Positions 32,178 through 52,000 of a stretch of 64,000 bases of DNA are shown one piece after another. The DNA is taken from IMG/VR virus record IMGVR_UViG_3300035680_000003. The stretch is one strand, 5' to 3'. The stretch comes from a virus (Duplodnaviria > Heunggongvirae > Uroviricota > Caudoviricetes). The position numbers and the translations under genes are program-made. How positions within the stretch are numbered: the first letter of the stretch is position 1; each line of letters starts with the position of its first letter. Under the pieces are notes generated by a model. The model was not told where the DNA came from and searched no databases. It saw only the letters and a program-made list of their open reading frames with translations.

Positions 32178-32387
32178 TTATTTTTTTGTGGGCTGCTTTG
32201 CATCGTAGTAGGCTGCTATAGCCATACGATCTTTCTTTTCTGGATCTTTGTTTTTAAATTGACGATATTGATTTGGGTCAGCAGTTTGAAAACGTTGTTT
32301 CCAATAGTCAATAGGCATATCGGGCCTTAGTTTAGGCTGTGGTCCGACTGGCTTAGTTTGTTGAGCAGGCTCCTCTGTCGGTGCCAC
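32178..32387 (-). CDS. Small ORF, probably the -1 frameshift extension of the 897 aa protein
   Basis: The frame is open upstream to 32423 and passes through the A_AAA_AAG site at the end of the upstream gene. An independent GTG start is possible. Confidence 0.6.
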   Translation of the reverse strand: MAPTEEPAQQTKPVGPQPKLRPDMPIDYWKQRFQTADPNQYRQFKNKDPEKKDRMAIAAYYDAKQPTKK

Positions 32388-32412
32388 CGGTTCCTGCTCA
32401 ATTACTTTTTTG
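32361..32412 (-). promoter_or_regulatory. Candidate programmed -1 ribosomal frameshift signal
   Basis: Minus strand TC-A AAA AAG-TAA, followed by a 9-bp inverted repeat TTGAGCAGG...CCTGCTCAA (32361-32369 / 32393-32401). Confidence 0.6.
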
Positions 32413-35095
32413 ATTTCTTCTTTTCAGGAAGACCTTTGTGCTTAGTTGATGCAAAGTCTTTGGCATCTTTCTTGCCCATATCCTTGGCTACTTTGGCAAC
32501 TTCTTTACTGGCAGGCTTTTCACCTTTTTGTGCAGCATGAACCATGCCCATAAACTTTTGTTGCTGCTTGCTTACTGCTTTTTCACTCAGGACCTGTTGC
32601 AATGAGTGGGCAAGACTTTCCATATATACATCAACTTCGGATACTGACTGTTCCATACTTCTCAACTCACCAAGTGTGTCGGAAACAAAGTCTTCATCAT
32701 AGCTGATCAAATATCTTGCCTCCTTTGGCGACATGTTTAATTCTTTGACCAGCACCATGCCTATTGCGTTGATCAATTCATTTTCTTGTGCAGGATCGTA
32801 TTTGATTCCACGATCTGATAGAATTTTAGCAACTTGATAACTTGTGCGATCTTCCGGTGCTTCCGCTACACCTTGCTCACTCTCGCCTATTTCAAGTTCG
32901 CCGCGACTAGCCATTCGGTTTTGTAATTTATCCAGATTACCCGACTGCAACTGACTATCAAATTGTGGTAGCATTTGAGCAAGGGTATCAGGATCCATTT
33001 CAATATCAAATTGATTTGATAGTATCTGTTGCCAATTTAGTATTCTTCTTTTTTCTGGTGTTCCTATAGGAGCCATGACTACTGCTTTTAGATATGCCAT
33101 TGCTAAATGTGTTTTGTTTGCTCCAGAGCCTTCCGCCACACCTTGCTCAGGACTATGTCTCAGATTGGCTATGTAACCATTGGGACCAGTCCATTGATCT
33201 TTATAGTCTTGCCATTCGTTCTGACTCCATGCTATAGGGAACATTTGCCAGGCCCACATTCCATGGGTATTAAACTCGCTAGAAAATTCCTGTATGTCTG
33301 CCAGTGTAATACCCGAGGTCTTGGTCTGTTTAGCAACATCAATCAACCAGTGCGCCATGGTTTCGCCACCGTCTTCGAATTCGCTTAATTTTTTTAATTT
33401 ATTAAATCTATCTGCACCTTGCTTGGCAAACTCACGGCAAAGATCTTCAAGCCATTTTATAAATTCCTGACCAAATTTGGCCAATGCAGTCTCGGGGTCG
33501 CTGCCTGTTCTTGCAGTGAGGGACTTATTCAAATTATCTACACCTTGCCTGGCACCAGCACCGCCTGTGATCTGTCCCATCATGCTGTCAAATCTCTCAT
33601 CGCCTGTTGCCTCCGCCACACCTTGCTTTTTATTTCGCAACAGGCCCACCTGTTTTAGTTTTGGGTCCATGAAGTAATAAACATTCCCGTCAGCACCCAC
33701 AGCATGACTTTTACTTGCAGTGTATCCAGTTCTTAATTCATCAGGAGTTGCAGGTCTTACTTGTTTCACTGATTCACGCAAATCGCCTTCTTCAGGGTCT
33801 TGGCCAGTTTTTACAAAATGTTCAAGTTCTTCAAGTGAATAACCAACTTGATCGGCTAGGTTTTGTTTGTCTTCTGGCGACATTCTGCGCCATCCACTTC
33901 TTATTGTTTGTAGTTGTAGGGACAACTCGTGGCGTCTGGTCATTTCGTTACCAGCATTAGTTACTGGACCGTTTAAAATGTTTCTGATTTCTGAAGTATA
34001 GTATGCGTCTGCTTTACCTGCCATTTGACTACCGTACTGTTGACCTAATGTTTTCCCACCAAACTTTTTGACTTGTTGTGCGCTTAATACTTTGGCAAGA
34101 TGCGTAAAATCTTTTCCGTTTCTTATTGCGGCTACTAGTTTTTCTTCGGCCGCTTCAATCCATTCTTGGAATTCAGGATCTGCTTGAACGGCCAAGTTGT
34201 CTACTTCTTGATTATAGAAGTCAATTGATTGTTGGTGCCCATCTGTACCTGCGGCATTAGCTGGCATGTTTACACTTGAGCTACCAAATGCCTCCGCCAC
34301 ACCTTGCTTTGGCAAATCACTTAATTGATCCGGAATATAGTCTTCATCGTAACTTAATAAGTAACGAATTTGTTTTGAACTCATTCCTGCTTTCTTCATG
34401 TATTGAGCCATCAATCCGATGAGTTCATCTTCTTTATCTGGGCTGTAGGTAATGCCGTCTTGAGCCATTTGCTGTCCAATGGACAACTTAGTTTGATCCG
34501 CTGGGATACTCAAATACTGGTCGCCTGGCATACTGGCTCCACCTTCCTCTACACCTTGCTGCTCTGCTTTTGCTTTGGCCTCATCTCTAGTACGACTATA
34601 ACCTTGGGCTATTGCTAGTTGTACTTGATTAGGGTAGACAGACGTTTTGAACATTTTACCATCTTTAACAACATACCAGTCTGTTGGATCTAAGTCGTGT
34701 CGTTCATCATCGCCGCGATTGAATGCACCACCTACTCCACGAAATGGCATGCCTGCTTCTGCTAACTTTGATTTTAGTTGATCAATTTTTGTGCGTAGAG
34801 ATTCCATATAGGGCTTTTTATGTTTTGCAGCGCCCTGCTTTTGTTCTTTTTTCTTATCCTTGTGTGCGCCTGCACCACTGGACTTGGCATTCTTAGCAAC
34901 AAAATTACGGGGAGTAGTTGCAGGAACTTTGTCTTTACCTGCTTCTTGTGCCAAGATATTTCCGCGCTTTTGGACTTTGCCTAACGAGCTCGGTGCTGTA
35001 GCAACACTACCTGAACCGGTTGCACCTGCTGTCATTGACTCTAATGTATAGCGAGTTTCGTTATTGCTTTTTGATTTTTTAAATTCGTTGTTCAT
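32402..35095 (-). CDS. Modular predicted internal head polyprotein with repeated QGVAE junctions; C-terminal DUF3008-like module
   Basis: Unrelated modules are joined by xQGV(A/E)E; many further L/V/M-x-E sites; basic C-terminal KAVSKQQQKFMG...KHKGLP module. Confidence 0.7.
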   Translation of the reverse strand: MNNEFKKSKSNNETRYTLESMTAGATGSGSVATAPSSLGKVQKRGNILAQEAGKDKVPATTPRNFVAKNAKSSGAGAHKDKKKEQKQGAAKHKKPYMESLRTKIDQLKSKLAEAGMPFRGVGGAFNRGDDERHDLDPTDWYVVKDGKMFKTSVYPNQVQLAIAQGYSRTRDEAKAKAEQQGVEEGGASMPGDQYLSIPADQTKLSIGQQMAQDGITYSPDKEDELIGLMAQYMKKAGMSSKQIRYLLSYDEDYIPDQLSDLPKQGVAEAFGSSSVNMPANAAGTDGHQQSIDFYNQEVDNLAVQADPEFQEWIEAAEEKLVAAIRNGKDFTHLAKVLSAQQVKKFGGKTLGQQYGSQMAGKADAYYTSEIRNILNGPVTNAGNEMTRRHELSLQLQTIRSGWRRMSPEDKQNLADQVGYSLEELEHFVKTGQDPEEGDLRESVKQVRPATPDELRTGYTASKSHAVGADGNVYYFMDPKLKQVGLLRNKKQGVAEATGDERFDSMMGQITGGAGARQGVDNLNKSLTARTGSDPETALAKFGQEFIKWLEDLCREFAKQGADRFNKLKKLSEFEDGGETMAHWLIDVAKQTKTSGITLADIQEFSSEFNTHGMWAWQMFPIAWSQNEWQDYKDQWTGPNGYIANLRHSPEQGVAEGSGANKTHLAMAYLKAVVMAPIGTPEKRRILNWQQILSNQFDIEMDPDTLAQMLPQFDSQLQSGNLDKLQNRMASRGELEIGESEQGVAEAPEDRTSYQVAKILSDRGIKYDPAQENELINAIGMVLVKELNMSPKEARYLISYDEDFVSDTLGELRSMEQSVSEVDVYMESLAHSLQQVLSEKAVSKQQQKFMGMVHAAQKGEKPASKEVAKVAKDMGKKDAKDFASTKHKGLPEKKKSKK

Positions 35096-35457
35096 TTCTT
35101 CATCCAGTTTGCTACAGGGCTTACGGTATATGTATTGTCCAGTTCGCGACTTTCCATATCACCTTTATTTACATCTTTATAGTTTGCACCAACTACCTTG
35201 TATGCTTGTTTAAGCATTTCTTGTTCTTCTTTACTGTAAGGATGAGTAGTTTTAGTTTTACCCGCCCAACTCTTACCATTCATTTCGATGGGGTCTTTTC
35301 CGTTGGCTCCTGCTACTGCCATGCCTAATCTATAGGATGTATAAGTGCTGTCGGCTCTTTCACCGTCCTTGTAGGTATTTAAACCACGAGTAGCCTGTTG
35401 CTGTCTCTTGGTAATTTTACCTGTTTTCATCTCAGTGATTAGTTCATTGATGCGCAT
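35092..35457 (-). CDS. Small predicted internal head protein
   Basis: The likely start ATG 35457 gives MRINELITE, resembling the T4 capsid-targeting sequence; TAAATA lies just upstream. Confidence 0.65.
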   Translation of the reverse strand: MRINELITEMKTGKITKRQQQATRGLNTYKDGERADSTYTSYRLGMAVAGANGKDPIEMNGKSWAGKTKTTHPYSKEEQEMLKQAYKVVGANYKDVNKGDMESRELDNTYTVSPVANWMKK

Positions 35458-35461
35458 AATG

Positions 35462-35737
35462 TTATTTATTTCTTCCGTACCATAGTTCAAACCATGCGGG
35501 AGAACCAGATTTAATTCCATGCTCTTTCATGTATTTAGCCTTATCTACAGCACCAGATTTAACGTAATTGGATTCTCTTACGGATGCATTGTATTCGTGC
35601 AGTCGTTCTGTAGCATTTAGCCCGCCCATATAGCTAACAGTCTTTAAGGCGTGTATAGGATCTTCCGGTGCAAGATAGCAATCGTCCGGACTGTCCTTTA
35701 CCATGTTTTCGTGAGTGATGTAATACTGCTTGATCAT
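35462..35737 (-). CDS. Hypothetical protein
   Basis: 91 aa ORF coupled to the 1606 aa gene by an ATGA overlap. Confidence 0.65.
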   Translation of the reverse strand: MIKQYYITHENMVKDSPDDCYLAPEDPIHALKTVSYMGGLNATERLHEYNASVRESNYVKSGAVDKAKYMKEHGIKSGSPAWFELWYGRNK

Positions 35738-38700
35738 TTTCTAATAAGATTTTCGATCAGTGCGCCCATAATATTTTCAACATCTTCACCTACTGGCACA
35801 CACTTGTCTTTACCGTTCTCAGTACCGTTGTAGCGATAATTTTTCCAACAGGCTTTACCATCAGCACCTTTTTTCTTAGCTTCGTCAACGGCATTCATCT
35901 TGTTTAATAGTTCCTGTGCCTTTTCAACACTGATCATATAACGACCAGTTCTATTAGGATCAGCGGCTTTTTGCAACCACTCTTTATTAAATCCTGCAGA
36001 TGCTGCTGGTTTAACATCGCTAGGAGCGACCTGTGTTACATTGGGTTTGCCTGTTAAACGATTGATATTAGGATCATCGCCAGGTGTAACTCGAGCATTT
36101 GCTCCAGCGGACCCTAGTGCCATTGCACCTGCAAGTCCTAATCCTGCTAGTTTAGATCCAAGTCCTTCATCGACCTCTTCCGACATACCTTGCTGAAAAG
36201 ATTTGAATACCACACGAGCAATTTCTTCAACATTCTTTGGAGATAGTTTTTTACCTAGCTGTTCTTTTGCCTGTTGATAGATATCGTTGATGTTTGGGTT
36301 TTCAAAGTTATTTTCGGAATCCCAATATGTAAATGATACTTCTTCACCATTTACTGTGAGTGTGTAAATATTTTGATTAACATCAGTATCTAAGTCAACG
36401 AGCTCAACGCCTTGCGTCACAGGCTTTTGAACCTGTTCAGGACCCACTACTCCCAAATACTTAACAGCATAGTCCAGTGCTCGTTTAACACCAGCTGGTC
36501 CTGCCAATGAATCAAACGCAGGCTGGCCACGTTTGAAATTGACCTGATCGCCAACTTCATCCCAGTCTCCGTGTGCTGTAATGTCTATCAACTCACGAGC
36601 CGAACCCGGAAATTCTTCAAATCGAGTCTGGCCCATTCTGCCCCACAAGTTAGGTAGGGCGGTGTGACGACCACGTGCATCTATGTATTCATTAGTCTCT
36701 TGATCACGCACATACGCATGTACTACTGAGTGTCGGCTGATATCGTTTGAGATTTCTTCTTGTTCTTCTGGACTTAGATCGTTCCACTCATCATCATCCA
36801 TTTGCATGTCCGGTGCGCCAGCAGACATGTTGTATTCCCAGATATATCCTATTGGATACCTCTTTGGATTATGCTGATTTATAGCAACGGCCAGTACCAT
36901 GCATTGTCCTTCCATGTAGTCGGCTTGCGCCTCTGCTCGGTCAGCGTCTTCCGCCACATTGTAATCAGGCATAGGTCTTTGACCAGGGCGACCTTTAACT
37001 CCACGCTTCTCTGTGCTTGGTGGTTTCGTTGGAGGAACAATGTCACCCTGATTTCTATATGGCTGCGGAGCCTTTTTAGGATTGCGGACATCGATAGGAG
37101 ACTGTGCTACTACGATAGGAGCACCTTCCGCCACACCTTTAGTATCGTTAGCAAACTGTTTCTTAGTTGCCTTGACAATGCCACTGAAACGCTTGTCGGC
37201 TTTTTTAGTGTTGCCTGCCTTGTCAGCAGCACTGGCTTGTGCGCCGGCAGCCTTCTTATACTGTCCTAACTTTTCATTGGACAACTCTGCAACAATCTGC
37301 TTCAATCCTGCTAACGCACGACTTTCATTAACTTTAGGGTCCATGCCTAGTTCTTTCTGACTCTGCAAATAGTCCCAAACACTGACCAACATCATCTCGG
37401 CCTTGGCAATCTTTTCTTGTCCCCACTCTGGTAAGTTGTCGTTGTTCTTGATTGTTTTTAACAAGCCATCAACAGCACGAGCCATAGTGCGTAGATTGCT
37501 CTGCGCCATTCCTGCTTCGTCGTCGTATTCACTATTGAATTCTTCTTTCTTTAAATTGCCCCAATCGTCTTTCTCGCTAGAATACTTGCGGCTATTACGA
37601 TCTGCTAATGCACCTTTCTCCATCTTGGCTCTGCGCTGTTCTCTATCACTGTCGAACTTAGCATACTTCTGTGCTTCGCGTCCTTGTGGATTGATTAGGT
37701 CTCTAACCATTTGACTGGTCGGCGCATTTTCAAACATTGGCGTTTTCTGTGTTCTAATCAATGCGTTAAATAATCTTTGTTCTGCAACCGGTACTGGTTG
37801 TGGTGCTGCTGCGGGCTGTTGAACAATGCCCATACCTTTTCTTGAGATGTCCATAAGATGTAGTATCCAATCTTTACCTAATTGTTGTGCGTTAAATCCC
37901 TGCGCCCATACTGCATACTGCTGTTCCGGAGTAGCATTGGGATTTTTTAGAACATCGCGTAGTTTAGTAAAACTTATAGGTCGTGTTCTTGGGATAGTTT
38001 CCAAACCGACCTTAACATGCTCGTAGCCCGGAAACTTATTAACAGCCTTCATTAGCGCACCTGCGATAGGCATGTCTTTACGATCTTCACCTACCATGAT
38101 AACAATGTTGTCATACTTGGGAGGCTTGCCCGGCTGCGGACTGATCAATTCGTGTTTGACCTTTTGCATTAAACTTCCACCTTGCATTACAGCACCGATA
38201 TTGTCAGCATACTGCGGATATAGTTTATGCCATGTCTGTACCTTAACGTCTGTTGGGATAGGATCGTCTGCACCCACTGCATTGCCAATAAACAGGTAAG
38301 GATCACCGCCTAATTCGTTGGCCTTCTTAACAGTTTCGTTAAACAAGTCTTCGTGTCCTAGATGTCCTGCAAAACTACCAACTGCTACCACTGCGGTCTT
38401 TAGGGGACCTTGACGTTTTGCACCCGGTTGAGCCATTTTAGCAGCCATAGCCGACTTCATCTGCTGACTAGTGACTTTAAATATTTGACCGTTAGGCATA
38501 TTAACAACAACACCTTCCATGTTGTCGCCTAGCGCATCTTTGCCTGCTAATTTAGGATTATTAATAATAGCATCGCTTAGTGCTTGTTTAGCTTGATCGA
38601 ACGCAGGCTTATTAGCTTTGTCTTTAGGATCTAAGTTTAGAATAGGATTAATAATCTTGCTGACGTTAATGCCTTTTTGTTCTAGATTATTACTGACAAT

Positions 38701-40554
38701 TTTAATGTTGCTATCACTGGCTGCTAACAAACGCTTTTTGATCTTGTCAGCATCGGGTCTTTCGTCTCCTGTGCTGTATTGTTTGAATACAAAAGGCACC
38801 AGTGTCATCTGCTTGCCTAGCTTTTTAGGATCGTAAGGAATATTGACAAATTTTAGTCCTTGGTCAGTTTGTTGTGCCATGGGATTATACATCATTTCTG
38901 CTTGTACAATAGTGTCTGCAGGTAGTGATTGTATAAACTTGCTACCGGTAATCAATGCCAGTGCATTGTCATAATTCTTTGTTCTTGCCAATGTCTCTGC
39001 ATCCTGACCTTTTTCTTGACCAAAGCTGGTAAAATAACCTACATCATCTTGATACAATGGAGTAGTCACTTTGCTGGTCATGAAGAACGGACGACCACTT
39101 TGATCTTTACCGAATCGAATGCCTGCGCCGTCTACTTTCAAACTGATAGGCACACCGTCAAGTTTGCCACCATTGTCTGCAATTGCCTTGGCAATTTCTA
39201 AGAAATCTGCATTCTTCATTTCTGCTGTACTTACACGACCATCTGGCAGTCTGTTGTACAGGTGTTTGATACCTTGGCGAGCATAGTCTGGCTTTGCTGC
39301 TACTTCTGCTGCGGCATCTTCTGCTACTTCGGTACTGAGTGCATTTCCTCGTTTGGCATTGAACTGGTCTGCATAGTCCATTGCCATCTTAACTGCTTCT
39401 TGTCTTAGGCCTTGAGCATTTGGTAAGTTTAGAGGCTTAACCCCTCCACCGCCTAGCAACATAGCATCTACTGCGGCAAACTTAACATCACGATCTCGAG
39501 CTGGATCATCTTTAGTAATCATCTGTGCTCCGGGTCCAAATAGAATGTCTAGGAATGCACGAGTTACGGATTCAATTTGTTCAGGTTCAAACGACTTGTT
39601 CATTAGCTGTAGTGTTCCTACAAAGCTACCTTGCAAGTTTCGATCAGCAACACCACGCTTACGACCGAAGTTCATCTGGAACTGTTGGTCTAAATTTTGA
39701 ATATAGTCGCGGTCTTTTGGATCCAGCAGTTGCATAACAGGAATGCCGTCTTTTTCCATATGCTGTCCTGTAGCAGGATCGATGTATGGCTTATACTTTA
39801 TGCTCATGCCGCCGCCCTGAGAACTGCTGACTGCAAAACTGTAGTCGCTGTCTGTAACGGGAGCATCACTAATCTTAACACTTTTCTTAAGTACTCGGGC
39901 TACATACTTTTCACTGGACTGTGCATGTGTTAGAGCACGGTTGATATATTTGTGGAATACACCTTTAATACCAGCAGCCATGTCATCATAGTGACTACTA
40001 TGACTGTAGGCAAACCATTCAGTTGGTGCATTTGTTTTAGCGTCATACGGACCTAATTCATAATCAACTTGAATACGAACCTGCGGATCATCTAGCAACC
40101 AAATGCTTGATAACGAACTGTTAAATCCTAAGAATGTGCCGTTGCCAACTTTCTTACCAATAATACTCTTTAACCAAGCAGTGACTTCATCGCCCATATC
40201 CTGGTCAATCTGCGTGTCGATGTCGCCAACTTTTGTTTTCTTTAGTTTGTTTAAGAAGTCCTGTGTATTGATTCCCTTAACATCAAAGAATTGTAAGCTG
40301 CTACCACTGAGCATCTTTCCCGATGCCAATAGTTTTGGATCCCAAATATATTTGCCGTAGGCTGCTTTAAATGATTCGTTTTGTGCAGACAATAATTCTC
40401 GCAGTTGAGCCACCATGTGATCACGGTCGTGAATCTTTAGATCAATTTCTTCTGCTTCTTGATCAGCAGCACCTTGCCAACCTGGACTTTGACTTGATAC
40501 ATTGCCGCCTTCGAGCAATGGTTTTTTATTTCTGATTAGGTCGAACAACTGCAT
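35734..40554 (-). CDS. Multidomain polyprotein: Pol-beta-type nucleotidyltransferase, RNA-ligase-like domain, HIGH-like (cytidylyltransferase-like) domain, then cleavable cassettes including a papain-like module
   Basis: GDID (40216-40227); KVDG (39127-39138) with QAE, EGVVV and FKV motifs; VGSFAGHLGH (38351-38380); V-A-E junctions in the C-terminal half. Confidence 0.75.
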   Translation of the reverse strand: MQLFDLIRNKKPLLEGGNVSSQSPGWQGAADQEAEEIDLKIHDRDHMVAQLRELLSAQNESFKAAYGKYIWDPKLLASGKMLSGSSLQFFDVKGINTQDFLNKLKKTKVGDIDTQIDQDMGDEVTAWLKSIIGKKVGNGTFLGFNSSLSSIWLLDDPQVRIQVDYELGPYDAKTNAPTEWFAYSHSSHYDDMAAGIKGVFHKYINRALTHAQSSEKYVARVLKKSVKISDAPVTDSDYSFAVSSSQGGGMSIKYKPYIDPATGQHMEKDGIPVMQLLDPKDRDYIQNLDQQFQMNFGRKRGVADRNLQGSFVGTLQLMNKSFEPEQIESVTRAFLDILFGPGAQMITKDDPARDRDVKFAAVDAMLLGGGGVKPLNLPNAQGLRQEAVKMAMDYADQFNAKRGNALSTEVAEDAAAEVAAKPDYARQGIKHLYNRLPDGRVSTAEMKNADFLEIAKAIADNGGKLDGVPISLKVDGAGIRFGKDQSGRPFFMTSKVTTPLYQDDVGYFTSFGQEKGQDAETLARTKNYDNALALITGSKFIQSLPADTIVQAEMMYNPMAQQTDQGLKFVNIPYDPKKLGKQMTLVPFVFKQYSTGDERPDADKIKKRLLAASDSNIKIVSNNLEQKGINVSKIINPILNLDPKDKANKPAFDQAKQALSDAIINNPKLAGKDALGDNMEGVVVNMPNGQIFKVTSQQMKSAMAAKMAQPGAKRQGPLKTAVVAVGSFAGHLGHEDLFNETVKKANELGGDPYLFIGNAVGADDPIPTDVKVQTWHKLYPQYADNIGAVMQGGSLMQKVKHELISPQPGKPPKYDNIVIMVGEDRKDMPIAGALMKAVNKFPGYEHVKVGLETIPRTRPISFTKLRDVLKNPNATPEQQYAVWAQGFNAQQLGKDWILHLMDISRKGMGIVQQPAAAPQPVPVAEQRLFNALIRTQKTPMFENAPTSQMVRDLINPQGREAQKYAKFDSDREQRRAKMEKGALADRNSRKYSSEKDDWGNLKKEEFNSEYDDEAGMAQSNLRTMARAVDGLLKTIKNNDNLPEWGQEKIAKAEMMLVSVWDYLQSQKELGMDPKVNESRALAGLKQIVAELSNEKLGQYKKAAGAQASAADKAGNTKKADKRFSGIVKATKKQFANDTKGVAEGAPIVVAQSPIDVRNPKKAPQPYRNQGDIVPPTKPPSTEKRGVKGRPGQRPMPDYNVAEDADRAEAQADYMEGQCMVLAVAINQHNPKRYPIGYIWEYNMSAGAPDMQMDDDEWNDLSPEEQEEISNDISRHSVVHAYVRDQETNEYIDARGRHTALPNLWGRMGQTRFEEFPGSARELIDITAHGDWDEVGDQVNFKRGQPAFDSLAGPAGVKRALDYAVKYLGVVGPEQVQKPVTQGVELVDLDTDVNQNIYTLTVNGEEVSFTYWDSENNFENPNINDIYQQAKEQLGKKLSPKNVEEIARVVFKSFQQGMSEEVDEGLGSKLAGLGLAGAMALGSAGANARVTPGDDPNINRLTGKPNVTQVAPSDVKPAASAGFNKEWLQKAADPNRTGRYMISVEKAQELLNKMNAVDEAKKKGADGKACWKNYRYNGTENGKDKCVPVGEDVENIMGALIENLIRK

Positions 40555-40931: not shown

Positions 40932-41636
40932 TTACCCTTTTAACTTGGCTAAACCCAAAAACTCTAGCCCTTTAATGTACATCCAACCTATGTCAAATTC
41001 CCACCACTTCTGACTAAACTTAGGATTTGCGATATCTGCATGGTGATTATTGTGCAATTCCTCACCGCCGATCCATATGCCCCATGGCATTAAATTTTTA
41101 CTCTTATCTTTAGTGTCAGTATTGCGATATCCCCACCAATGTGCTAGTCCGTTTATTACACCTGCTGCAAAAAAAGGTATCCACAACATCTGTACACCCC
41201 ATACTAAGAATCCCCACCAACCAAATAACAACACGTCTATAACCAACATTACGAGAATACCCAATCGGTGATGGGGTGTATAAAGTGTACGTTCAATCCA
41301 GTCTTTAGGAGTACCCATTCCGTATTTCATAACCATGTCAGCATCACTGCCTGCTTGATTATAATACTTGACTCCTCTAAATACTAAATTCCAAATACCA
41401 AACACATGCGGACTGTGTGGATCACCTTCTACGTCAGTATTTTGATGATGTTTACGATGTACTGCCACCCATTGTTTAGTGGTCATACCTGTAGTGAGCC
41501 ATAACCAGAAACGCATAGCGTGTGCCAGTACTGGGTGAAATTCAACGCCTCTGTGACTTTGACTGCGATGTAGATATAGTGTAACACACATTATAGTAAT
41601 GTGTGTAAACAGTAACGTTATTAAAATTAAATTCAT
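40932..41636 (-). CDS. Membrane fatty-acid desaturase (delta-9/DesA-like)
   Basis: Three His boxes (HRSQSH, HRKHH, HNNHH), DPHSP motif and transmembrane segments. Confidence 0.93.
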   Translation of the reverse strand: MNLILITLLFTHITIMCVTLYLHRSQSHRGVEFHPVLAHAMRFWLWLTTGMTTKQWVAVHRKHHQNTDVEGDPHSPHVFGIWNLVFRGVKYYNQAGSDADMVMKYGMGTPKDWIERTLYTPHHRLGILVMLVIDVLLFGWWGFLVWGVQMLWIPFFAAGVINGLAHWWGYRNTDTKDKSKNLMPWGIWIGGEELHNNHHADIANPKFSQKWWEFDIGWMYIKGLEFLGLAKLKG

Positions 41637-42692: not shown

Positions 42693-45089
42693 TTATACTG
42701 CTGTAAATGTTTTAGTCAACGGAACTAATGTAATCGCAGTTGATATTTTGTTAGTTGAACCATATTGGAATATTGGATCAGCATACAGTACTGTGTTTGT
42801 ACCAGTACCGTTGATAGCACGATTTGAACCATCTCCAACAGGTATGTTGAATGTACACACACCAAACTGCATGGATGCTGAACCACTCATTGTAATACCG
42901 TGAGTATCGGACCCTGCTCCAGTGTTGTTAAGAATAACTTCACCCATACCCCATTGTACTGAACCACTTAGGGTAATAACAGAGCCAGTGTTGGCATCCA
43001 ATGAACTTCTCAACATAGTTCCTAATGAATCGTTTGCTTGGTTAAGTACTTGTCCTGTACCGTTAGTTTCAAGATTGTTTATACTACAAAAGCCACGTTG
43101 GATATCTATTAGATATACAGAGCCACCGGCTCTAGCCATGGTACAATCATTCATTTCCACTCTGCTACCTGTGCCAGTGTTATCCGCATAAACACAACTC
43201 TTAGTGGCGTTGCCTTGATAGCAGTATACATCGTTTAGGTAAAGTTTTGCTGGATTAGATCCAGTTAACTCGATACTGTGATACGTATCGTCGGTGCGAA
43301 CGGCAATATTAAATAGGCCAAATCTATTAACGTTTATAGCGTTTGTGCCGGTGTTTGCCGGAGTGATAGTAACATGTCCCTCAATCCAAATAGGTACATG
43401 GCCGGCATCGGGAGTTTCGCCACAGATAAAAATATTTCCACGAGTCAACGCCACATTCTCTGTGATAGAACTCTTTAGGAAAATAAACTGTGGGTTATCA
43501 ACGATAGAACCGTTTATGTCAATTACTAAACTAGTATCAGCAATCCTTGCTTCAATATAGGCCAATGCCGACGCGATATTTTTGAAAGGTTTGTGTAAAC
43601 TGCCATCAGCGGTGTATGTGCCCGTATTAGTTGGGTCGACAATCCATTGACTATCCGCTGTGTCGATATATACACTAACGCCTTCACTGTCGAGGATATC
43701 GCCCGGTACTGTTAGAGTACCATCATTGCCAAATTCCCAAGTATTGCCACCAAGAACATCACCATTGGTGTAGCCACCTGTGATTACCTGTACAACTCCA
43801 GACTGTGTGGTTTCTGTGTAAGCACGGCCGCCTGTGATTCTAACATCGCCACCATAACTACTGCCTGCGGCATTCTCAACAGTTACATCGCCGCCGGTGA
43901 TTTCCACAAATCCAGGATTGCCCGTGGTAGAAGTGTTAAAGTGAGCAACATTGCCCCCTTCAATCCTAACATAGCCACCTGTGTCGTTAAGGCCTTCGCC
44001 GCCGCGTAATTTAACATCGCCACCACTGCCGCCACCTTGGCCCCATCCTTCAGTGTTGCCGTTGGTGTCACCTCCAACTCCGCCCCAAATGTAAACATCG
44101 CCGCCTTCACCTGTGGTGCTGGTTGAGCCGTAGCCACGCTGGCCTTGGATCACAATACGTTGAGCGTTGGTGTTGTTTTCTGTAGCTGTCGGTCCTGTGA
44201 CGATAACTTGATTTTCGCTGTCGTTGCTTAACTGTAGTGTTGGACCACTAAGGGTGGTAGTAACATCGTAGCCCATATTAGATTTAGTTGGCAGAGTCAA
44301 GCCTTCCGGTAGTTCTAGACTGCCATCAAATCTAAATGTCCATGTGTAGTCAGTTGACGTGGTCTCTGTAGTAATCTCAATTCCGCTATTGGCAGGCATG
44401 TCAGCTTGGTTTACAAGTGTTAATTGAAATTCATTGCCTCCTGATATGTAAACATCGTCTGCGGCGTCTAACGTAATATCTCTTCCTGAACGAATAGTTA
44501 TATCATCGTCGCCAGTGGCCATGCCAAAGTAACTGTTACTTTCACCAACACCGTTAACTATGTCCAACCCAATGGTGTTGATGTAGTTGTAATTAAAATC
44601 AATGTCATCTATTGTTATAGGCTCTGGGTGTGCTGTAGCCAGTGTTATGGTGTACAATGGTGGATTACCACTAGAGATTACATTGGTCACTGTTGATGCG
44701 AGATCATCAGTGTTGGGATTTATCACTAGGTTGATGTTGCTGTAATTATAGGGAAAGGCAAGATTGCCATCAAAATACTCCACCCATCTTGACAACAGAT
44801 CATCGAGATACAGTCCAATATTATCTCCCATCTGTACAGCAATAGATCCAGTGGTATAGGCAAAAGTGTGTTCACTACCGTCGTTAAAATTATCTGAATA
44901 AGTTTTTTCTGCTGTTATTTTATTACCAGTACCACCAATGGATTCTAATCCGCTCCATACCGTTGTGCCATCACCAACTCTCAGTTGATTATTAGTAGTG
45001 TCGTAGCCTGCTTCACCTAAGGCCAGTACCGGATCGTTAGTAGTCCAATTAGCGGCTGTATCTCTACGTAGTTTGATTCTTGTTGTCAT
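42693..45089 (-). CDS. Tail fibre/receptor-binding protein with Mtd_N-like N-terminus
   Basis: MTTRIKLRRDTAANWT..DPVLALGEAGYDT...RVGDG..W..L; Gly-rich GGDV repeats; beta-helix-like C-terminus. Confidence 0.8.
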   Translation of the reverse strand: MTTRIKLRRDTAANWTTNDPVLALGEAGYDTTNNQLRVGDGTTVWSGLESIGGTGNKITAEKTYSDNFNDGSEHTFAYTTGSIAVQMGDNIGLYLDDLLSRWVEYFDGNLAFPYNYSNINLVINPNTDDLASTVTNVISSGNPPLYTITLATAHPEPITIDDIDFNYNYINTIGLDIVNGVGESNSYFGMATGDDDITIRSGRDITLDAADDVYISGGNEFQLTLVNQADMPANSGIEITTETTSTDYTWTFRFDGSLELPEGLTLPTKSNMGYDVTTTLSGPTLQLSNDSENQVIVTGPTATENNTNAQRIVIQGQRGYGSTSTTGEGGDVYIWGGVGGDTNGNTEGWGQGGGSGGDVKLRGGEGLNDTGGYVRIEGGNVAHFNTSTTGNPGFVEITGGDVTVENAAGSSYGGDVRITGGRAYTETTQSGVVQVITGGYTNGDVLGGNTWEFGNDGTLTVPGDILDSEGVSVYIDTADSQWIVDPTNTGTYTADGSLHKPFKNIASALAYIEARIADTSLVIDINGSIVDNPQFIFLKSSITENVALTRGNIFICGETPDAGHVPIWIEGHVTITPANTGTNAINVNRFGLFNIAVRTDDTYHSIELTGSNPAKLYLNDVYCYQGNATKSCVYADNTGTGSRVEMNDCTMARAGGSVYLIDIQRGFCSINNLETNGTGQVLNQANDSLGTMLRSSLDANTGSVITLSGSVQWGMGEVILNNTGAGSDTHGITMSGSASMQFGVCTFNIPVGDGSNRAINGTGTNTVLYADPIFQYGSTNKISTAITLVPLTKTFTAV

Positions 45090-45326: not shown

Positions 45327-46034
45327 TCATAGTCCGAATCTTGCCCGTAGAGCCGCATAGTTCTGTAGTTGTTCTGCTTCAGTTAGCACTCTATTGTATA
45401 GTAGGATAACAGCAAGTTTGCCTTTGAATCCTCTACTAAAGTAACCTTCCCCCCATACATAAGGAGTAGATCCCCATGATTGATTGGTTCTGGCGGCTCC
45501 TAGTATATTCCAACCTGTGACCAAATTCCCTGCTCCTGGAATAACAGTACCGTTTATGTAATAGTTAGTTGCTGTTAGATATGCCCAGTCAGCGTTGTTG
45601 CCTGGATTTTGTATACTCCATGGACTTGATCCGTTAGCATTACCAAATCGCATGGTACGGTCAGCATCAACACCTAGTCCATATGCTAGATTAGCATCAT
45701 CTACATTGTAACTGAAATCAGGTTGAAATACCAGTGTACAATCTTGATAGTTCTGTGATAGGCTTGATGTCATACAATTTGCCGAGTCGCCATCAAATAT
45801 AAAGTAACTAGAAGTACCGCTGTTGACAAATCCCACGGTCCCATTTAATGAAGCATCAGCACCTTGACCACTTATATCAAACCATGTGGCAGATTGCGAG
45901 CCTGGATAACTGGCTGTGATGCCTGCATCTAGATGAGCGATAAGGCCGTCTGTGACAATGGGCGGAGGCGGCGTGTGACCCCTCAGTGTAACACCGTTGC
46001 TGATAGTCTGTGCTGATCTAATAGTTATTGACAT
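45327..46034 (-). CDS. ConA/LamG-like lectin-fold virion protein
   Basis: DGLIAHLDAG..SYPG...W.D.SG and the C-terminal F.G.L....LYNRVLT..E..QNY pattern. Confidence 0.78.
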   Translation of the reverse strand: MSITIRSAQTISNGVTLRGHTPPPPIVTDGLIAHLDAGITASYPGSQSATWFDISGQGADASLNGTVGFVNSGTSSYFIFDGDSANCMTSSLSQNYQDCTLVFQPDFSYNVDDANLAYGLGVDADRTMRFGNANGSSPWSIQNPGNNADWAYLTATNYYINGTVIPGAGNLVTGWNILGAARTNQSWGSTPYVWGEGYFSRGFKGKLAVILLYNRVLTEAEQLQNYAALRARFGL

Positions 46035-46051: not shown

Positions 46052-49000
46052 TTAAGTAACAAGAGTTGTTCCATACAGAGGCCACCAAGATGTAACGCCG
46101 TCACCAACAAGATAAATCAATTCTGCTGTTCCCTCAGGAGCAACATTTACCGCACCGTCGATGGCTCCATCTACAGTTAATGTACAATTACTGGAGATGT
46201 TGACAATAACTAATCGTTGTCCCGCCGTCCCGGGAGGCAATACAACAGTATGACCATCACTGCCACTATAACCACCAACCACTGTACAGAACAGTAAGTT
46301 GAATGTAACATTAGTAATCGTTAGCGTAGTATTAACACCATCAAACTCGTAGGTTTCTTGTCCTGTAACTACTGTCAATACTGAAGTACCAGAACTATTT
46401 TTAATGTCTCCACCATCAGGCAGTGTTAAACTACCATCCCCAGCAAAGGTCCACAACTGTGAAGTAGCACTGGTATCAACATTTGGTACTTTTATGTATA
46501 TTTGATCATCTGCGGCCACTTTGACATACTTGTCATCGTTGCCCAGGAATATGCTGGTCTGTGCCATATTCTCACTGATCAAATGTATGTGTCCGCTTTC
46601 ACTGCCTTCGGTTGTGCCGTCTACTATATTGACACGCAGGTAATTGGATCCAGCACCTGGAGCATAAGTTCCAGTAGTAACAATAGTGACAGTAAATGTT
46701 TCTTCGCCTTCAACAATAGCATCGTTAGCTATCATTAGCATGTTGGTATTAGTATAATTAAAACCGCCACCATCTAAAGTCCAATTAGCAGCCGCAAATG
46801 TTCCTGTTAGTACGGCAGGTGTGAAGTCTGCGGCTGTAATACCTGTGCCGGTAATTATGTATTCTACATCACCCTGAACATACTGAAGACCGCTAGCGTC
46901 CCACAATGTTATAGAAATAACAGTACCTTCTGTGCCAGTGCTCACATAAGGGTCAGGATATGTCACTGGATCAAGTTCATGTAAGTATTGCTGATAACCT
47001 TGATCAGTGGGGTAGTCAGCAGTCATATACGAATTATATGTCGAACGCAGAACTAGACTAGTTGCCTGTCCCGGACTGTTTGGAGTCAATACTAATGTGC
47101 TAGTCGTGTCTACAATGGTAGCACCGTTTGGTAATGTTAACCCACCATCTGCGGCAAATGTCCAAGTATTAATTGCTGTTGATGTGCTAGCAGTTTCAAT
47201 GTAGACATTAGGATCACTGTTGTTGCCCAGGATTGTGCTGGCTGTGCTTAATGTTAAGACACCATCTGTGCCAAATACCCAAGTGCTGGTTGTAGCAGTT
47301 GAATAAGTTTGAACAACAATATTACCCCCATTCTTTTCAATCTTAACATACTGATCATCATCGCCTAGGAATAGATCAACTGTGGTAGGATTGCCTGATA
47401 TCAAGTGTATGTGATTTGTTTCAGTAGTGCTGGTACTGCCAGTTGGACGAATAACCAAACTCTGTCCAGCACTGGCTCCAGGTGGGGATATAATCGTAGT
47501 AGTGTTTGTTTCACTTATGGTGCTACCTTGGGGGAATTCTAATTCCCCATCTGTGCCAAATGTCCAGGTGCTGTTGGTAACAGTTGAGTAAGTTCCAACA
47601 ACTATGTCACCACCGTGATCTATTTTAACAAACTGGTCATCGTTGCCTAGATATAGATCAGTCTCGCCACCAAAGCCTGCTGTCAAGTGTATGTGATTAC
47701 CATCAACAACTGTGGGATAAATCAGCAATGCTTGAGTAGCACTAGATGCACCTGCGGGTTCAATTCTAAAAGCCCCCATACCCGATGATATAGTAGCACC
47801 GTCGTTTAATGTTAATGTACCATCCGATTCAAGTATAAATTCAGCGTCATTGTTAACTAATCTATCACCTAATGCTGTGGTACTGTCACCTGTGTACAGT
47901 GTGCCTATTAGAAAGGCACTGCTGTCGACGATTGGTGTAACAGTGGCAACGGTTATGTTTGACGTATTGTCAGTGTCAGTCTTATCTGCGTTGACCACTG
48001 TAATGTCGCTGGCCGATGTGTCTAATGTACCAGTAAGATTTGAGGCTCTGAAATCCCATGCACCCACTGCGAACGGGTCGCCTGTGGCAGGTAACTGTGC
48101 TATTAGAGCATGGAAGTCACTTGGACCTTCAAACGACCCAAAGCCACCGGCAAGTGCTACATAATCTTGTTTGACCGCTAGGTTACTTCCGCCGCCTTGA
48201 CCAGCCAAGAAGTCGGAACCACTGACTGAAAGCGTATCTATATTATCTAATAGTCGTTGCCATACTACTGTACCATCTAGATTATATTTGGCCACTACAC
48301 AGGAAATGTCAATAGGATCGTCGGGCCCTGGATTGGGCACAGTTGTAGTGAACAGTGAACCAGACAGATAAAGTTTATCATCAGCACCAACCACTATGCT
48401 GGTGGCAATTGCTCCACAGTCGCCCTCTACACGACGGCTCCACTGTTTGACACCTGCACTGTTGAATTTAACTAAATTCATACAAATACCGGGTCCAGCA
48501 TTGTCGACTTCGTATTGTCCGCAGACATAGACGTTACCCTCACTGTCAATGTCAGCATCTGCTCCAGTACTGTCATATCCCTCGTCAAACAATATGGCCC
48601 TTTGCCAGTCAATGGTACCATCGCTGAGATACTTGACCACCAGCATGTGATTGTCTGTATCGCCTTCCCCACCCAGTTGATCCATATATCCAACGGCTAC
48701 TACTTCGCCTGTGGGTCCAACTGCCATGCCGTAGGCTTCTTCGTCATCCTGTCCGTCTAGTTTTTTTGACCAAATGATTGAACCATCTTCAGCATCAACT
48801 TTAGTGGTTGTCACATAGCCACCGCCAAGGTTGTCAAAAGTGTAACCAACCATGACGGGATTTCCGTCCGATGCTACATCAACTACCTGGCTGTTACTGT
48901 TAATGCTCTCGCCAAACGCATAGGTCTTGCTCCATTCAACTGAGCCGCCGCCGCTGGCAATTTTAGTTAAAGTGGACTTTTCCTGTCCGCCATCGGTATT

Positions 49001-52000
49001 TGTTTTTCCCGCTACATAGATGAATCCATTGGTTGGATCTACGGCCAGGCCCCATCCATCTGTTTCGTAGCCTGTACTAAATCGTGTGGTCCAAATTCGT
49101 GTGCCAGATGTGGTGTACTTGCCCACTGAATAAAATGACCCGCCACTGTCTTCCCCGTGATAGAAAAGAGCAATCACGTTGCCAACACTGTCATATTCTA
49201 CACTCAGTGCTATCAGTGGTGTATCTAGTAGAGGAGTTGCTGACTCAAATGTCTGTACCCACACGTTGCTGGCAGCACTGCCGCCGCCCAATACACTAAC
49301 TCCATTGCTGTCAAGGATATCACCACCTGGTGGTAGTATGATATTGTTGTTGACAAATGTCCAAGTGTTGGTTACAGTAGAAGATCCACTGACACTGCCC
49401 AAGGCCAGTGTTTCACCAGTGAGTCCAACTATGTCAGTGACATAACTAACGCTGAGACTACTTGTTGACAATATTGCGGTTGATGTACCGGTTGACCACG
49501 TCAGGGTAGTCACAGTATATGTGCCAGTTGAAGAAATACTATCTATGTCACTGGTAAGATCAGCTATGGTTATATTGCCAAAGGTGCCAGTAACGCTGCC
49601 ATCGATGGGCAGTTGTGCCACCAATACTCTTGTCTCATTAGTGCCAGTACTGTCATCAATATCCGAACTGGTTACAGCAGTGACCGCTATCTTATCTTGA
49701 TATATATCGCCTACTCTGTGGCCAGAACTGCCGCCGCCGTCAGCACCTTGATCTATTATAACTACACCCGCATCAGTTATCAGTATACGACTGTATAACA
49801 TTTCTCCGTTGGCAGGATTGAGTTTTGTTATCCATAACTGTGGCTGTCCTACTGGCGGACCAGGTATGGTTCCAGTTACATATACATTGCCACTGGCGTC
49901 AAAACTTAAATCGTATGCTCCTGTACTGTAGGAGCCGGGGCCGCCGTCTGTAATAGGGTCAAGTTCTCCCGTCGCTAGATATGAAGCCCATATCAAGTCA
50001 CCATCTGTGTCGAATTTAGATACCACGGCCTTTTGATCAGGGTCATCGTTGACTATGGTATAAACATAGCCACCGTTGTATATCACCGCAGCGGCTAGAT
50101 CTCCTGTGGTAGTGACTAATTCTTTGGTCCATTGGTGTATGCCATTGATGTCCCACTTGGATAACATCGCACGTAAACCGCCGTCATAATAATCACCTAT
50201 GGCCCAAACATCACCAGTGGCAGGGTTAACAGTCACAGCACGGTATTGTCCATCGACAGGAAGGTCTTCAAAATCCTCGGGTATGATATTGCCGGTCCAA
50301 ATTGGTGTTCCGCTGTCTCCATCGATTTTAATCACTACAGGAGTAGTACTGTACGAGATGTTGTCATAGTAAGAACCTGCTAGATAATAATTTCCAGAAT
50401 TATCACAGGCTATATCCACAGCAGAAACATACCCATCCACGAAACCTAGACTTCCTTGGGCTATTCCGCCCAGTCCAAGATTTCCATCAGTGTCCATATA
50501 GCCGGACCAGCAACCGAAGCCGCTGACAACAGCAGTGGCCAACCAGTAGATTCGATCATTGCTGTCTATGGCAAAGGCCTGATTGACCGCACCGCAATTG
50601 GCACCACTGTTGTCATGCCATGTTCTACTCCATAATAAATTACCATTGGTATCGTATTTTAACAGTAGACTATCTACATCATTTAGGCCGCCGTCACCAA
50701 ATAGTACACCACCTAGCACATATACATTGCCCACGCTGTCATAGAAAGCACCGGTGCCTATGGTATAACTAGAAGTAGTGACCGCAGTGGTTATGCCGCC
50801 AAATTCTGCTGCCCAGTATGGACGAATTACTCCACTACTGGGTACTTGTATTGTCACGCTGTTGTTGCTGACAGATAACTTGGTATTATCGCCACCATCT
50901 ATGACAATGGCATCGCTGTCAACATTGGCAGTACTGATAACGGTACCATCAATGGCCAATCCGTCTAGGTATGTTTCTGGACTTGGGATCTGTGTTGGAC
51001 TTGCGTCTAACCATACACCGCCGGTGGCAACATAGGTACGTCCTTCAACAGTGTCAAACCATTGCGAACCAGGCGTAGTCGCTGCTGGAGCAGTATCTGA
51101 AATTATCACTGCACCGAGTACAATGTTGGTATCTCCCTGGACAGTTAAGTTGCCGGTGGTGTTTACTGTGATGAGAGGGTTGCCGTCAACTGTGACATAG
51201 TTGTCTTGGTTAACTCCCAGTGCCACTCCGCCGATATAGATCGTGCCTGTTCCAACATAGATACTACGCCATTGACTTGATGTAGATCCTAGATCGTACT
51301 CTAGATCAGCGTCGGGAAGGATATGGCCAGGCGCAGTCAGTGCACCATCTTTACCAAAACTCCAAAGATTTGTCACATCTGTACCAATCTGTACACCCAC
51401 GTTGGTCAAAGTTGAATCATAGGGTAACTTGACGTAGTTAAGGTCATCACCGAAGAATAGATCTACAGTGGTAGGGTCATCACGCATGATGTGGAAATGT
51501 GATGCGACGGTTGGCACACACTCCGGAGTGTTACCAAACAATACTGTGCCACGATCGGTGGTTAGTTTAATACCATCTAAAGTACCGCTACCAATAGTTC
51601 CGTACGGTAATACGATATCTCCAGGGGCAGTTAATGTGCCATTACCACCAAATGTCCAATTGCTACCAACATCATCGCCGGCACTGATTTGTATGTCTGC
51701 AATAGATTTAATTAATGCGTTAGTCGTTGTGTATAACGCATTACTAGAGGTGGTTAATGTTATTGTACCATCAGTACCTAATATTACACTGTAACTGCCT
51801 GTAGTTAATCTATCTTCTTGTGCTCGCTCACCTTGTGGACCAGTTGGTCCTGGATCTCCTTGTGGACCTGTTGGACCTACAGAACCTGGATCACCTGTTG
51901 CACCTGCTGGTCCTGGATCACCGATGTCACCTTGTGGACCAACAATTTGTCCAACATCGTTCCACGCTGTATTCGTTCCCCAGAACCATACACGACCTGT

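Follow-up and report, generated by a model that had tools for sequence, protein, structure and literature searches.

Related phages swap, lose and reorder protein modules exactly at a short joint that encodes the peptide Q-G-V-A-E and is conserved at its silent DNA positions. In the window, the whole stretch of 64,000 nucleotides of phage DNA that was analyzed, this joint recurs inside two large minus-strand ORFs, a cassette polyprotein gene of 897 aa (P0001, 32402-35095) and an enzyme-plus-cassette polyprotein gene of 1606 aa (P0002, 35734-40554). We estimate a probability of roughly 60% that both ORFs are cargo polyproteins of a jumbo phage of the T4 superfamily, their cassettes being swapped at the joint and freed by the prohead protease.

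Repeat copies and modules of the two polyprotein genes

A scan of the window with the 17-mer AGCAAGGTGTGGCGGAA gave seven matches at no more than three mismatches, all on the minus strand; dinucleotide-preserving shuffles contained a mean of 0.16 matches and none of 100 shuffles reached seven. Five copies lie in the 897-aa ORF (starting at 34544, 34292, 33611, 33131 and 32861) and two in the 1606-aa ORF (37126 and 36178). An eighth, decayed copy at 36949-36965 (AAT GTG GCG GAA, peptide NVAE) has five mismatches to the 17-mer; it completes the number of eight in-frame copies given by the initial annotation, whose module spacings were also exact in both ORFs (252, 681, 480 and 270 nt in the 897-aa ORF, 177 and 771 nt in the 1606-aa ORF). 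All copies keep the reading frame and encode (K/E)QGVAE(A/G) or the variants GVEE and GMSE, and GTG GCG is retained in five of them, as had been reported. An assembly chimera was ruled out, since public assemblies list the exact 897-aa protein in 94 blocks, and the 23 contigs on which we read it include two of 226 and 275 kb. Lake metagenomes, JGI 3300042356 among them, contain the phage. A simple recent tandem duplication was likewise rejected, the flanks of the copies being unrelated and the word being common to phages with only 67% identity in polB.

P0001 carries five strong junction repeats in addition to decayed ones. Its conserved N-terminal segment (aa 1-114, 34754-35095), which ends in KLAE↓A (arrows mark the putative cleavage point), contains YTLE↓S (aa 15-19) and, at aa 62-99, a basic motif resembling DUF7230 whose score lay below the cut-off; approximately the first 100 residues are also N-terminal in the polyproteins of many relatives. 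The cassette that follows (aa 115-184, 34544-34753) ends in QQGVEE↓G at a repeat with two mismatches (34544-34560). From just past the LAE site up to the repeat it is 91.7% identical to relatives L003 and L004 over 204 nt, versus 75-79% for their polymerase region, and in other phages it occupies a C-terminal position. Cassette aa 185-268 (34292-34543), ending in KQGVAE↓A (repeat 34292-34308), represents a widespread family of small modules; most of 130 library hits match it, in proteins of 64-1748 aa that carry it in many different places.

Cassette aa 269-495 (33611-34291) ends in KKQGVAE↓A (repeat 33611-33627); no homologue of it was present in the loci fetched, and its few library hits extend from the left junction to just beyond the right one. 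Cassette aa 496-655 (33131-33610), ending in PEQGVAE↓G at an exact repeat (33131-33147), is 92-93% identical in L003, L004, L120 and L125, with differing neighbours, and as a free-standing protein it was represented by two probable fragments only. An ESM Atlas search with cassettes 269-495 and 496-655 gave no usable match. Cassette aa 656-745 (32861-33130) ends in SEQGVAE↓A (repeat 32861-32877) and is followed by cassette aa 746-820 (32636-32860), at whose end, near 32636, a further decayed junction, EQSVSE↓V, was recognized. Cassette 746-820 is a paralogue of cassette 185-268 (39% identity, E 7e-17), the aligned ends being EQSVSE and KQGVAE, respectively; the initial view that all modules are unrelated therefore held for most of them and failed for this pair. 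The gene closes (32402-32635) with a short spacer reaching VLSE↓K and, before the stop codon, a basic DUF3008-like domain (aa 836-897). This domain gave PHROG hits of 1e-14 to 1e-24 and is 69% identical to the free-standing 69-aa ORF93 of cyanophage S-SCSM1. A single-sequence AlphaFold2 model of P0001 (mean pLDDT 41, pTM 0.22) was too poor to place the junctions in linkers; in this low-confidence model junctions 184, 495 and 745 are coil, while 268 and 655 are short helices in mostly coil stretches.

P0002 has VAE-type sites with Glu at aa 412, 1090, 1143, 1202 and 1459, and its architecture is mosaic among relatives. The part comprising aa 1-1090 (37285-40554) has PLLE↓G at aa 12-16 and ends in IVAE↓L. 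Within it, a phrog_19290 domain (aa 13-365) stops near EVAE↓D at 412, past which come ligase-like and cytidylyltransferase-like domains and then a conserved module (aa 1004-1075) that L096, L112 and L120 carry in the other polyprotein gene. The cytidylyltransferase-like domain opens a separate ORF in L094, L108, L112 and L120, and this part of P0002 is weakly similar to the NMNAT-like ORF91 of S-SCSM1 (27% identity, pairwise E 1e-3). A Lys-rich module (aa 1091-1143, 37126-37284) ends in TKGVAE↓G at a repeat with three mismatches (37126-37142); phrog_26930 matches aa 1088-1139, and a protein of Synechococcus phage BUCT-ZZ01 shares 70% identity with residues 1076-1142. Cassette aa 1144-1202 (36949-37125) ends in NVAE↓D at the decayed eighth copy, which keeps GTG GCG GAA, and cassette aa 1203-1459 (36178-36948) in QQGMSE↓E at a repeat with two mismatches (36178-36194). 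The latter cassette was unmatched in L081 and L082, and aa 1161-1559 as a whole were unmatched in L082. After the QQGMSE junction comes the C-terminal module (aa 1460-1606, 35734-36177); its homologue in L094 (74% identity) begins at the junction (aa 1459), where it is joined to a different N-terminal part.

Conservation of the joint as DNA and exchange of cassettes

In well over a hundred phage contigs the DNA of the joint element hardly varies. The exact 17-mer was found in at least 120 IMG/VR stretches, and the loci fetched contained 563 distinct contexts of the element, 537 of which are open in the QGVAE frame; the consensus is a joint of about 20 nt, AG CAA GGT GTG GCG GAR GG, which reads x-Q-G-V-A-E-(G/A). 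Codons were counted at 92 GVAE sites of 50 dereplicated ORFs, which were picked by protein homology, so that the sample was not biased by codon choice. Val was GTG at 70 of the 92 sites (background 13%), Ala was GCG at 72 (background 7%) and Gly was GGT at 82 (background 41%), the joint Gln was CAA in 58/58, and the codon at P-2 ended in AG whichever of three residues it specified (Glu as GAG in 23/28, Lys as AAG in 18, Gln as CAG in 8). GTG and GCG are indeed uncommon here, as had been suspected, making up 12% of Val and 7% of Ala codons in the genes of the window, and the share of GTG-GCG among Val-Ala pairs rises from 1.7% in general (38/2229) to 6.9% in xVAE and 70% in GVAE. This difference rules out plain codon bias and substantiates the earlier proposal of conservation at the DNA level. 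No conservation was seen in the sequence flanking the element. Silent sites of a coding linker conserved about 40-fold over expectation are an unusual and cleanly measurable signal by itself.

It is at the joint, too, that cassettes are swapped, dropped, acquired and reordered, among distantly related phages and between the two genes. Two P0001 cassettes match L001 from repeat to repeat: that at 33121-33627 with 99.8% identity over 507 nt, its adjoining modules being different, and that at 32859-33147 with 92.7% identity over 289 nt, its counterpart in L001 belonging to another polyprotein gene. For comparison, identity to L001 is 67% in polB and 64% in the Clp-like gene. Modules pass between the two polyprotein genes, and when orthologous loci were compared both the content and the order of the modules differed among relatives. 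Moreover, we examined where internal DNA matches end across 221 related genes: 102 of 349 left ends and 150 of 395 right ends fall on the repeat (expected 2.2% and 2.5%), statistics that include related sequences, so that individual events are not independent. Homology thus breaks on the repeat at 29-38% of the ends versus about 2% expected, and the claim of a recombination joint made in the initial annotation is strongly supported.

Two pairs of relatives have flanks 95-99% identical around different middles; in the pair L230/L236 both edges of the differing middle lie on junctions, and in L134/L178 the left edge alone lies on a recognised junction. The 617 segments sampled from the family fell into 519 clusters, with a median cassette length of 82 aa. 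Recurrent cassettes keep a constant length while their neighbours are all different, and matches in a library of 1.84 billion proteins mostly begin or finish at junction positions. The exact P0001 arrangement is identical on the 23 contigs read, from which it follows that shuffling is not fast at the strain level.

The most parsimonious mechanism would be that the short common sequence supports ordinary phage homologous recombination or template switching; as each exchange would regenerate the joint, the joint would stay homogeneous. The likeness to an integron drawn initially holds for the behaviour and goes no further; ordinary homologous recombination at a joint of about 20 nt would suffice. 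Two other explanations of the constant word were considered. That it serves RNA or translation, through a pause at GTG-GCG or a Shine-Dalgarno-like AGGUG core that assists module folding, with exchange as a by-product, appears very improbable to us. The two codons are rare here, and the joint core does contain AGGTG, which is complementary to the 16S rRNA tail; a pause, however, would require rare codons but no constant word of 20 nt, whereas the joint also holds constant the common codons CAA and GGT and the xAG of P-2; moreover, the downstream sequence is unconserved, so that no start codon follows at a fixed distance. Such a role would also leave unexplained the repeat-to-repeat transfer of a cassette at 99.8% identity between phages that share 67% identity in their polymerase genes. 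A dedicated site-specific nuclease or recombinase that reads the 20-nt word and drives the exchange, as a true integron-like system, we regard as improbable. It would account for a word conserved across very diverged phages and for breakpoints within a few nucleotides of it, and a conserved 142-aa ORF (35092-35520), which recurs in relatives, lies between the two genes; nevertheless, this ORF had no Pfam or PHROGs match, general recombination is very active in T4-type phages, and the shuffling of T4-type phages at conserved motifs and at PeSL elements has been explained without such an enzyme (PMC2839356, PMC3157838).

The joint as a candidate prohead protease site

Judged from its sequence, the joint peptide fits the rule of T4-type prohead proteases. 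T4 gp21 cleaves after L/I-X-E, phiKZ gp175 after S/A-X-E and SPN3US gp245 after A-X-E (PMC9026906, PMC10052503), and the internal junctions, V-A-E followed by G or A, match the hydrophobic-x-Glu rule. Glu at P1 is almost always kept in decayed copies, which have Val, Met, Leu or Ile at P3. Both proteins have leaders ending in hydrophobic-x-Glu (YTLE↓S in P0001 and PLLE↓G in P0002), a motif that alone is weak evidence; residues 12-44 of P0001 align with the maturation site of the capsid protein of relative G004 (E 5e-5), and residues 1-60 of P0002 gave no alignment with this capsid protein. A Peptidase_S77, the T4-type prohead protease (PF03420, E 3e-26), is encoded by G004 (the contig of L091), where YLAE↓S occurs in the capsid protein and LAEA in three places of the scaffold protein. 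No match to a prohead protease was found in the contig fragments, 14-65% complete, of eight other relatives.

The proposal that the joint doubles as a cleavage site therefore fits in its Glu at P1, its hydrophobic P3 and the protease encoded by G004, the P3 residue being Val and not the Leu/Ile of gp21. The conserved peptide, Q-G-V-A-E-G, exceeds the minimal gp21 rule, and part of its conservation may be driven by the DNA, or may concern another protease, or none. The DUF3008 end of P0001 starts directly after VLSE↓K, and its free-standing counterpart, S-SCSM1 ORF93, is annotated as a virion protein in its record. The NMNAT-like ORF91 of the same cyanophage has been reported from its virion proteome by mass spectrometry, and NMNAT-like proteins have been repeatedly detected in cyanophage virions (PMC9602691).

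It is possible, if rather doubtful, that the repeat is a recombination joint and flexible linker only, that the proteins work as uncut multidomain beads on a string, whether packaged or not, and that the likeness to a protease site is incidental. Nucleotide conservation and frame-preserving exchange alone would hold the peptide constant, hydrophobic-x-Glu is frequent by chance, and the surroundings of the genes are not those of a head module, nor was a late promoter found. On the other hand, decayed copies lose their DNA identity and still keep the Glu at P1 and the hydrophobic P3, the N-terminus of P0001 resembles the maturation site of a capsid protein, the free-standing DUF3008 protein of S-SCSM1 matches the product predicted from a cut after VLSE, and homologous domains were detected in cyanophage virions (PMC9602691).

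According to the cargo polyprotein reading that we favour, each ORF would begin with a conserved N-terminal part and finish with a conserved basic or enzyme end, mostly unrelated small cassettes being strung between them. The N-terminal part would take the precursor into the prohead, where the T4-type prohead protease would cut at the joints, recognizing the hydrophobic-any-Glu-small peptide, and so produce separate small proteins; these would stay with the DNA and enter the host, by analogy with the internal proteins and Alt of T4. More tentatively, the joint could be a selected dual-use element, at once an in-frame universal adaptor with which very different giant phages trade packaged effectors, like an integron at the protein level, and the protease site that releases them, in which case the hundreds of ORFan cassettes might be a large pool of injected host-takeover and counter-defence proteins. 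If the cargo polyprotein reading holds, phages would evolve their delivered cargo by in-frame exchange, between distant phages, of modules that the same joint later releases, which would extend the ideas of T4 internal proteins with their targeting sequence and of motif shuffling to widespread uncultured freshwater giant phages. The many small proteins (617 segments in 519 clusters in our sample) would become candidates for early host takeover or counter-defence, and the arrangement would offer a natural design rule for putting foreign proteins into large phage capsids.

Known systems, gene surroundings and cargo

T4 IPI, IPII, IPIII and Alt have a capsid targeting sequence and are substrates of gp21, the prohead protease (PMC9026906, PMC3012670); a conserved leader takes this cargo into the prohead, the protease cuts it and it is delivered with the DNA, and the T-even set shares the targeting sequence only. 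Small, diverse and often basic cargo and a leader ending in hydrophobic-x-Glu are shared with the proteins described here, for which packaging and cutting are predictions. The T4 internal proteins, however, have one small gene with its own leader per cargo, whereas the present ORFs of 897 and 1606 aa string many cargos together, and the joint is internal, much longer and conserved as DNA.

The glycine-rich motifs of the gp38 adhesin and the motifs of T-even tail fibres are places where recombination swaps segments (Tetart et al. 1998, as summarized in PMC3157838). As there, we found short conserved in-gene motifs dividing variable segments, with exchange points within or near the motifs; in gp38 the motifs are the structural core of one domain and the variable parts are loops, while the present joint parts whole unrelated transferable modules and its silent sites are conserved across distant phages. 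PeSLs (PMC2839356, PMC4122927) are also short repeated DNA, bounding non-essential genes of T4-type phages that are gained, lost and replaced by recombination. They are nevertheless intergenic and combine an early promoter with a terminator stem-loop, whereas the joint is translated, in frame inside the ORFs, and has neither promoter nor stem-loop. Head and ejection proteins of the giant phages phiKZ and SPN3US are similarly cut after the Glu of a three-residue motif, long propeptides being cut several times (PMC9026906, PMC10052503), but they are single proteins with propeptides and not arrays of unrelated modules. Neither a joint conserved at the DNA level nor cassette traffic is described for them. 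VENN in CdiA is an example of the conserved demarcation motif of polymorphic toxins, and in these toxins, as in integron arrays, a short conserved joint lets variable ends or cassettes recombine. Both are bacterial systems, and integrons employ an integrase and attC sites and move whole genes, whereas the cassettes here are parts of one reading frame; no integrase was found among the scanned ORFs adjoining the two genes. A literature search found no published description of QGVAE-joined cassette polyproteins, and a full-text query with QGVAE gave alpha-synuclein papers only, among the matches listed.

Both polyprotein genes sit among replication and metabolic genes, and no head genes are present within the 64,000-nt window. 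The T4-type late promoter TATAAATA is absent near the two genes, and promoter and terminator scans gave no excess over shuffled controls. A megablast of the region against cultured phages returned no match, and Pfam, PHROGs and PADLOC searches with both proteins and with single modules gave only hits that were below threshold or of unknown function. In the relatives, Pfam recognized GNAT, deaminase, Pol-beta nucleotidyltransferase and SutA RNA-polymerase-binding domains among the cargo.

A probable recombination joint conserved as DNA

The 17-mer AGCAAGGTGTGGCGGAA was found seven times at ≤3 mismatches, always on the minus strand: five times in the ORF of the 897-aa cassette polyprotein (32402-35095) and twice in that of the 1606-aa enzyme-plus-cassette polyprotein (35734-40554). 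In 100 shuffled controls the number of matches averaged 0.16 and never rose to seven. A decayed eighth copy, retaining GTG GCG GAA, lies at 36949-36965; the eight copies reported in the initial annotation were thus recovered, and all six of its spacings (252, 681, 480 and 270 bp in the first gene; 177 and 771 bp in the second) proved exact. Every copy is in frame and encodes (K/E)-Q-G-V-A-E-(A/G) or a close variant. The separated modules had been described as unrelated, a statement that has to be restricted since residues 185-268 and 746-820 of the 897-aa protein, ending in the junctions KQGVAE and EQSVSE respectively, are paralogues. Public assemblies list the identical 897-aa protein in 94 blocks, and it was read on 23 contigs, among them one of 226 kb and one of 275 kb; therefore, the arrangement is real.

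In the window, GTG accounts for 12% of Val codons and GCG for 7% of Ala codons. Codon choice at the joint was analyzed using 131 related IMG/VR loci, a sample free of codon-choice bias because it was collected by protein homology; after dereplication, 50 ORFs with 92 GVAE sites were retained. Val was encoded by GTG in 70/92 sites (background 13%), Ala by GCG in 72/92 (7%) and Gly by GGT in 82/92 (41%), and the Gln directly ahead (P-1) was CAA in 58/58 (73%). At the codon before it (P-2), Glu was GAG in 23 of 28 cases (19%), Lys was AAG in 18 (37%) and Gln was CAG in 8 (27%); whichever of these residues stands at P-2, its codon thus ends in AG, which is a nucleotide signature and not a peptide signature. 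As a control, Val-Ala was encoded by GTG-GCG in 1.7% of cases in general (38/2229) and in 6.9% within xVAE, compared with 70% within GVAE (66/94), bearing out the proposal that this uncommon codon pair is conserved as DNA. The conserved block spans ~20 nt (AG CAA GGT GTG GCG GAR GG), with unconserved flanks on both sides. The exact 17-mer occurs in at least 120 stretches of IMG/VR, on contigs of up to 524 kb, and all fetched loci together hold 563 distinct joint copies at ≤4 mismatches, the QGVAE frame being open in 537.

Exchange of cassettes between phages

We consider it very probable (about 0.85-0.9) that the repeat is a recombination joint. Cassette 496-655 of the 897-aa protein (window 33121-33627) matches the related locus L001 over 507 nt at 99.8% identity, and another gene of that locus shares 92.7% identity over 289 nt with cassette 656-745 (window 32859-33147). 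Each match opens exactly where one repeat begins and stops within a few bases of the next; the adjoining modules are unrelated, and the polymerase and Clp-like genes of L001 are only 67% and 64% identical to those of the window, a pattern which indicates that single cassettes were transferred recently between distant phages. Cassette 496-655 is also present in L003, L004, L120 and L125 at 92-93% identity, from repeat to repeat and in a different context each time.

The initial annotation had predicted that relatives would differ in module presence and order with breakpoints at the repeat, and such variation was indeed observed. Among 221 joint-carrying genes, DNA matches of ≥85% identity were compared for their distinct internal ends: 102/349 left ends and 150/395 right ends fell on a repeat, against 2.2% and 2.5% expected; the sequences being related, these ends do not count as independent events. 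Two locus pairs share flanks that are 95-99% identical around different middles; in L230 and L236 both edges of the differing middle lie on junctions, with one cassette opposite six, and in L134 and L178 a recognised junction is present at the left edge only. The 196 dereplicated genes yielded 617 segments falling into 519 clusters, with a median internal cassette of 82 aa. Internal cassettes that recur do not vary in length (160, 67, 55 and 53 aa), their neighbours on each side differ in every instance, and cassette order may be inverted between phages. When residues 185-745 were searched against 1.84 billion representative proteins, most of the stretches matched in the 130 hits began or ended at junction positions; some matches to cassette 496-655 started 20-40 residues further upstream.

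Comparison with relatives showed the 1606-aa protein to be as mosaic as the 897-aa one. Residues 1161-1559 are without match in L082, and L096, L112 and L120 carry module 1004-1075 in the other polyprotein gene. The front (window 37285-40554, minus strand) holds several nucleotidyl-transfer-type regions, including a phrog_19290 domain common to Campylobacter and Vibrio myoviruses, a KVDG ligase-like motif and an HxGH cytidylyltransferase or NMNAT-like domain whose homologues are cyanophage virion proteins. The cytidylyltransferase-like domain begins its own ORF in L094, L108, L112 and L120, and the L094 ORF has a C-terminal part that matches the 1606-aa protein from residue 1459, the junction, onwards.

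Putative cleavage and cargo

T4 gp21 cleaves after L/I-X-E, phiKZ gp175 after S/A-X-E and SPN3US gp245 after A-X-E (PMC9026906, PMC10052503). In decayed joints P1 is still Glu and P3 is one of Val, Met, Leu and Ile; variation within the joint is lowest at base 2 of the Val codon and at bases 1 and 2 of the Glu codon. The relative G004 has a head module in T4 gene order (L133 3136-7011: portal, small ORF, acidic 300-aa protein, Peptidase_S77 prohead protease, scaffold, capsid), in which the capsid protein has YLAE|S where its maturation site is expected and the scaffold contains LAEA three times. This capsid maturation site aligns (E 5e-5) with residues 12-44 of the 897-aa protein, a segment that includes YTLE|SMTAGATGSG. 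[quoted passage not shown] The evidence fits a gp21-type rule at the joint sites, from which we infer cleavage, and we lean somewhat towards protease release and head packaging of the modules.

No function was recognisable for the window modules in database searches (Pfam, PHROGs, PADLOC; ESM Atlas for cassettes 269-495 and 496-655), and single-sequence fold prediction of the 897-aa protein was too poor for use. Pfam analysis of the polyproteins of 55 relatives detected DUF6321 in six, GNAT in two, and single cases of cytidine deaminase, Pol-beta nucleotidyltransferase and a SutA RNA-polymerase-binding domain, a mix that would fit enzymes and host-directed effectors. Injection of the cassettes, or a counter-defence role for them, is at present a tentative and rather doubtful suggestion.

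In its way of working the system would resemble the T4 internal proteins with their targeting sequence (PMC9026906, PMC3012670), combined with motif-mediated shuffling as in gp38 adhesins and PeSL elements (PMC3157838, PMC2839356); unlike these, it is an in-frame array of unrelated modules, with a joint fixed at silent positions and common to very distant phages. Our literature search found no published description of a QGVAE-joint polyprotein system.

Genomic surroundings

The window comes from an uncultured phage, whose family-B DNA polymerase is closest to those of Atu_ph07, Phosso and Rak2/GAP32-type jumbo phages (43-50% identity). The 64 kb contain replication, tail-fibre and metabolic genes and no head module; gene context and promoter scans around the polyprotein genes were uninformative on expression timing. 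Tail-fibre genes include one for a 2206-aa protein with collagen-like repeats (46052-52672, minus strand), with additional fibre genes after it at 42693-45089 and 45327-46034. A 555-aa subtilase (5194-6861, plus strand; Peptidase_S8, E 3e-29) lies among tail-fibre-like genes and might process fibres. A 763-aa protein (53806-56097, minus strand) matches phrog_4871, labelled ATP-dependent protease (E 3e-250), an unusual type in a phage.

A fatty-acid-desaturase-like gene (40932-41636; PF00487, E 2e-12) is located two genes upstream of the 1606-aa gene on the same minus strand. Between the polyprotein genes are a 142-aa ORF (35092-35520), with no Pfam or PHROG match, and a 91-aa ORF (35462-35737), both on the minus strand; DNA matches to the former region adjoin polyprotein genes in L081, L096 and L111. 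A 117-aa ORF of the S-adenosylmethionine decarboxylase family (PF02675; 30885-31238, minus strand), taken from the gene table of an identical contig, is placed between the polyprotein genes and polB. At the end of the 897-aa gene (region 32178-32430, minus strand), A AAA AAG is proposed as a candidate -1 frameshift site leading into a 69-aa ORF, which is called as its own gene on one identical contig.
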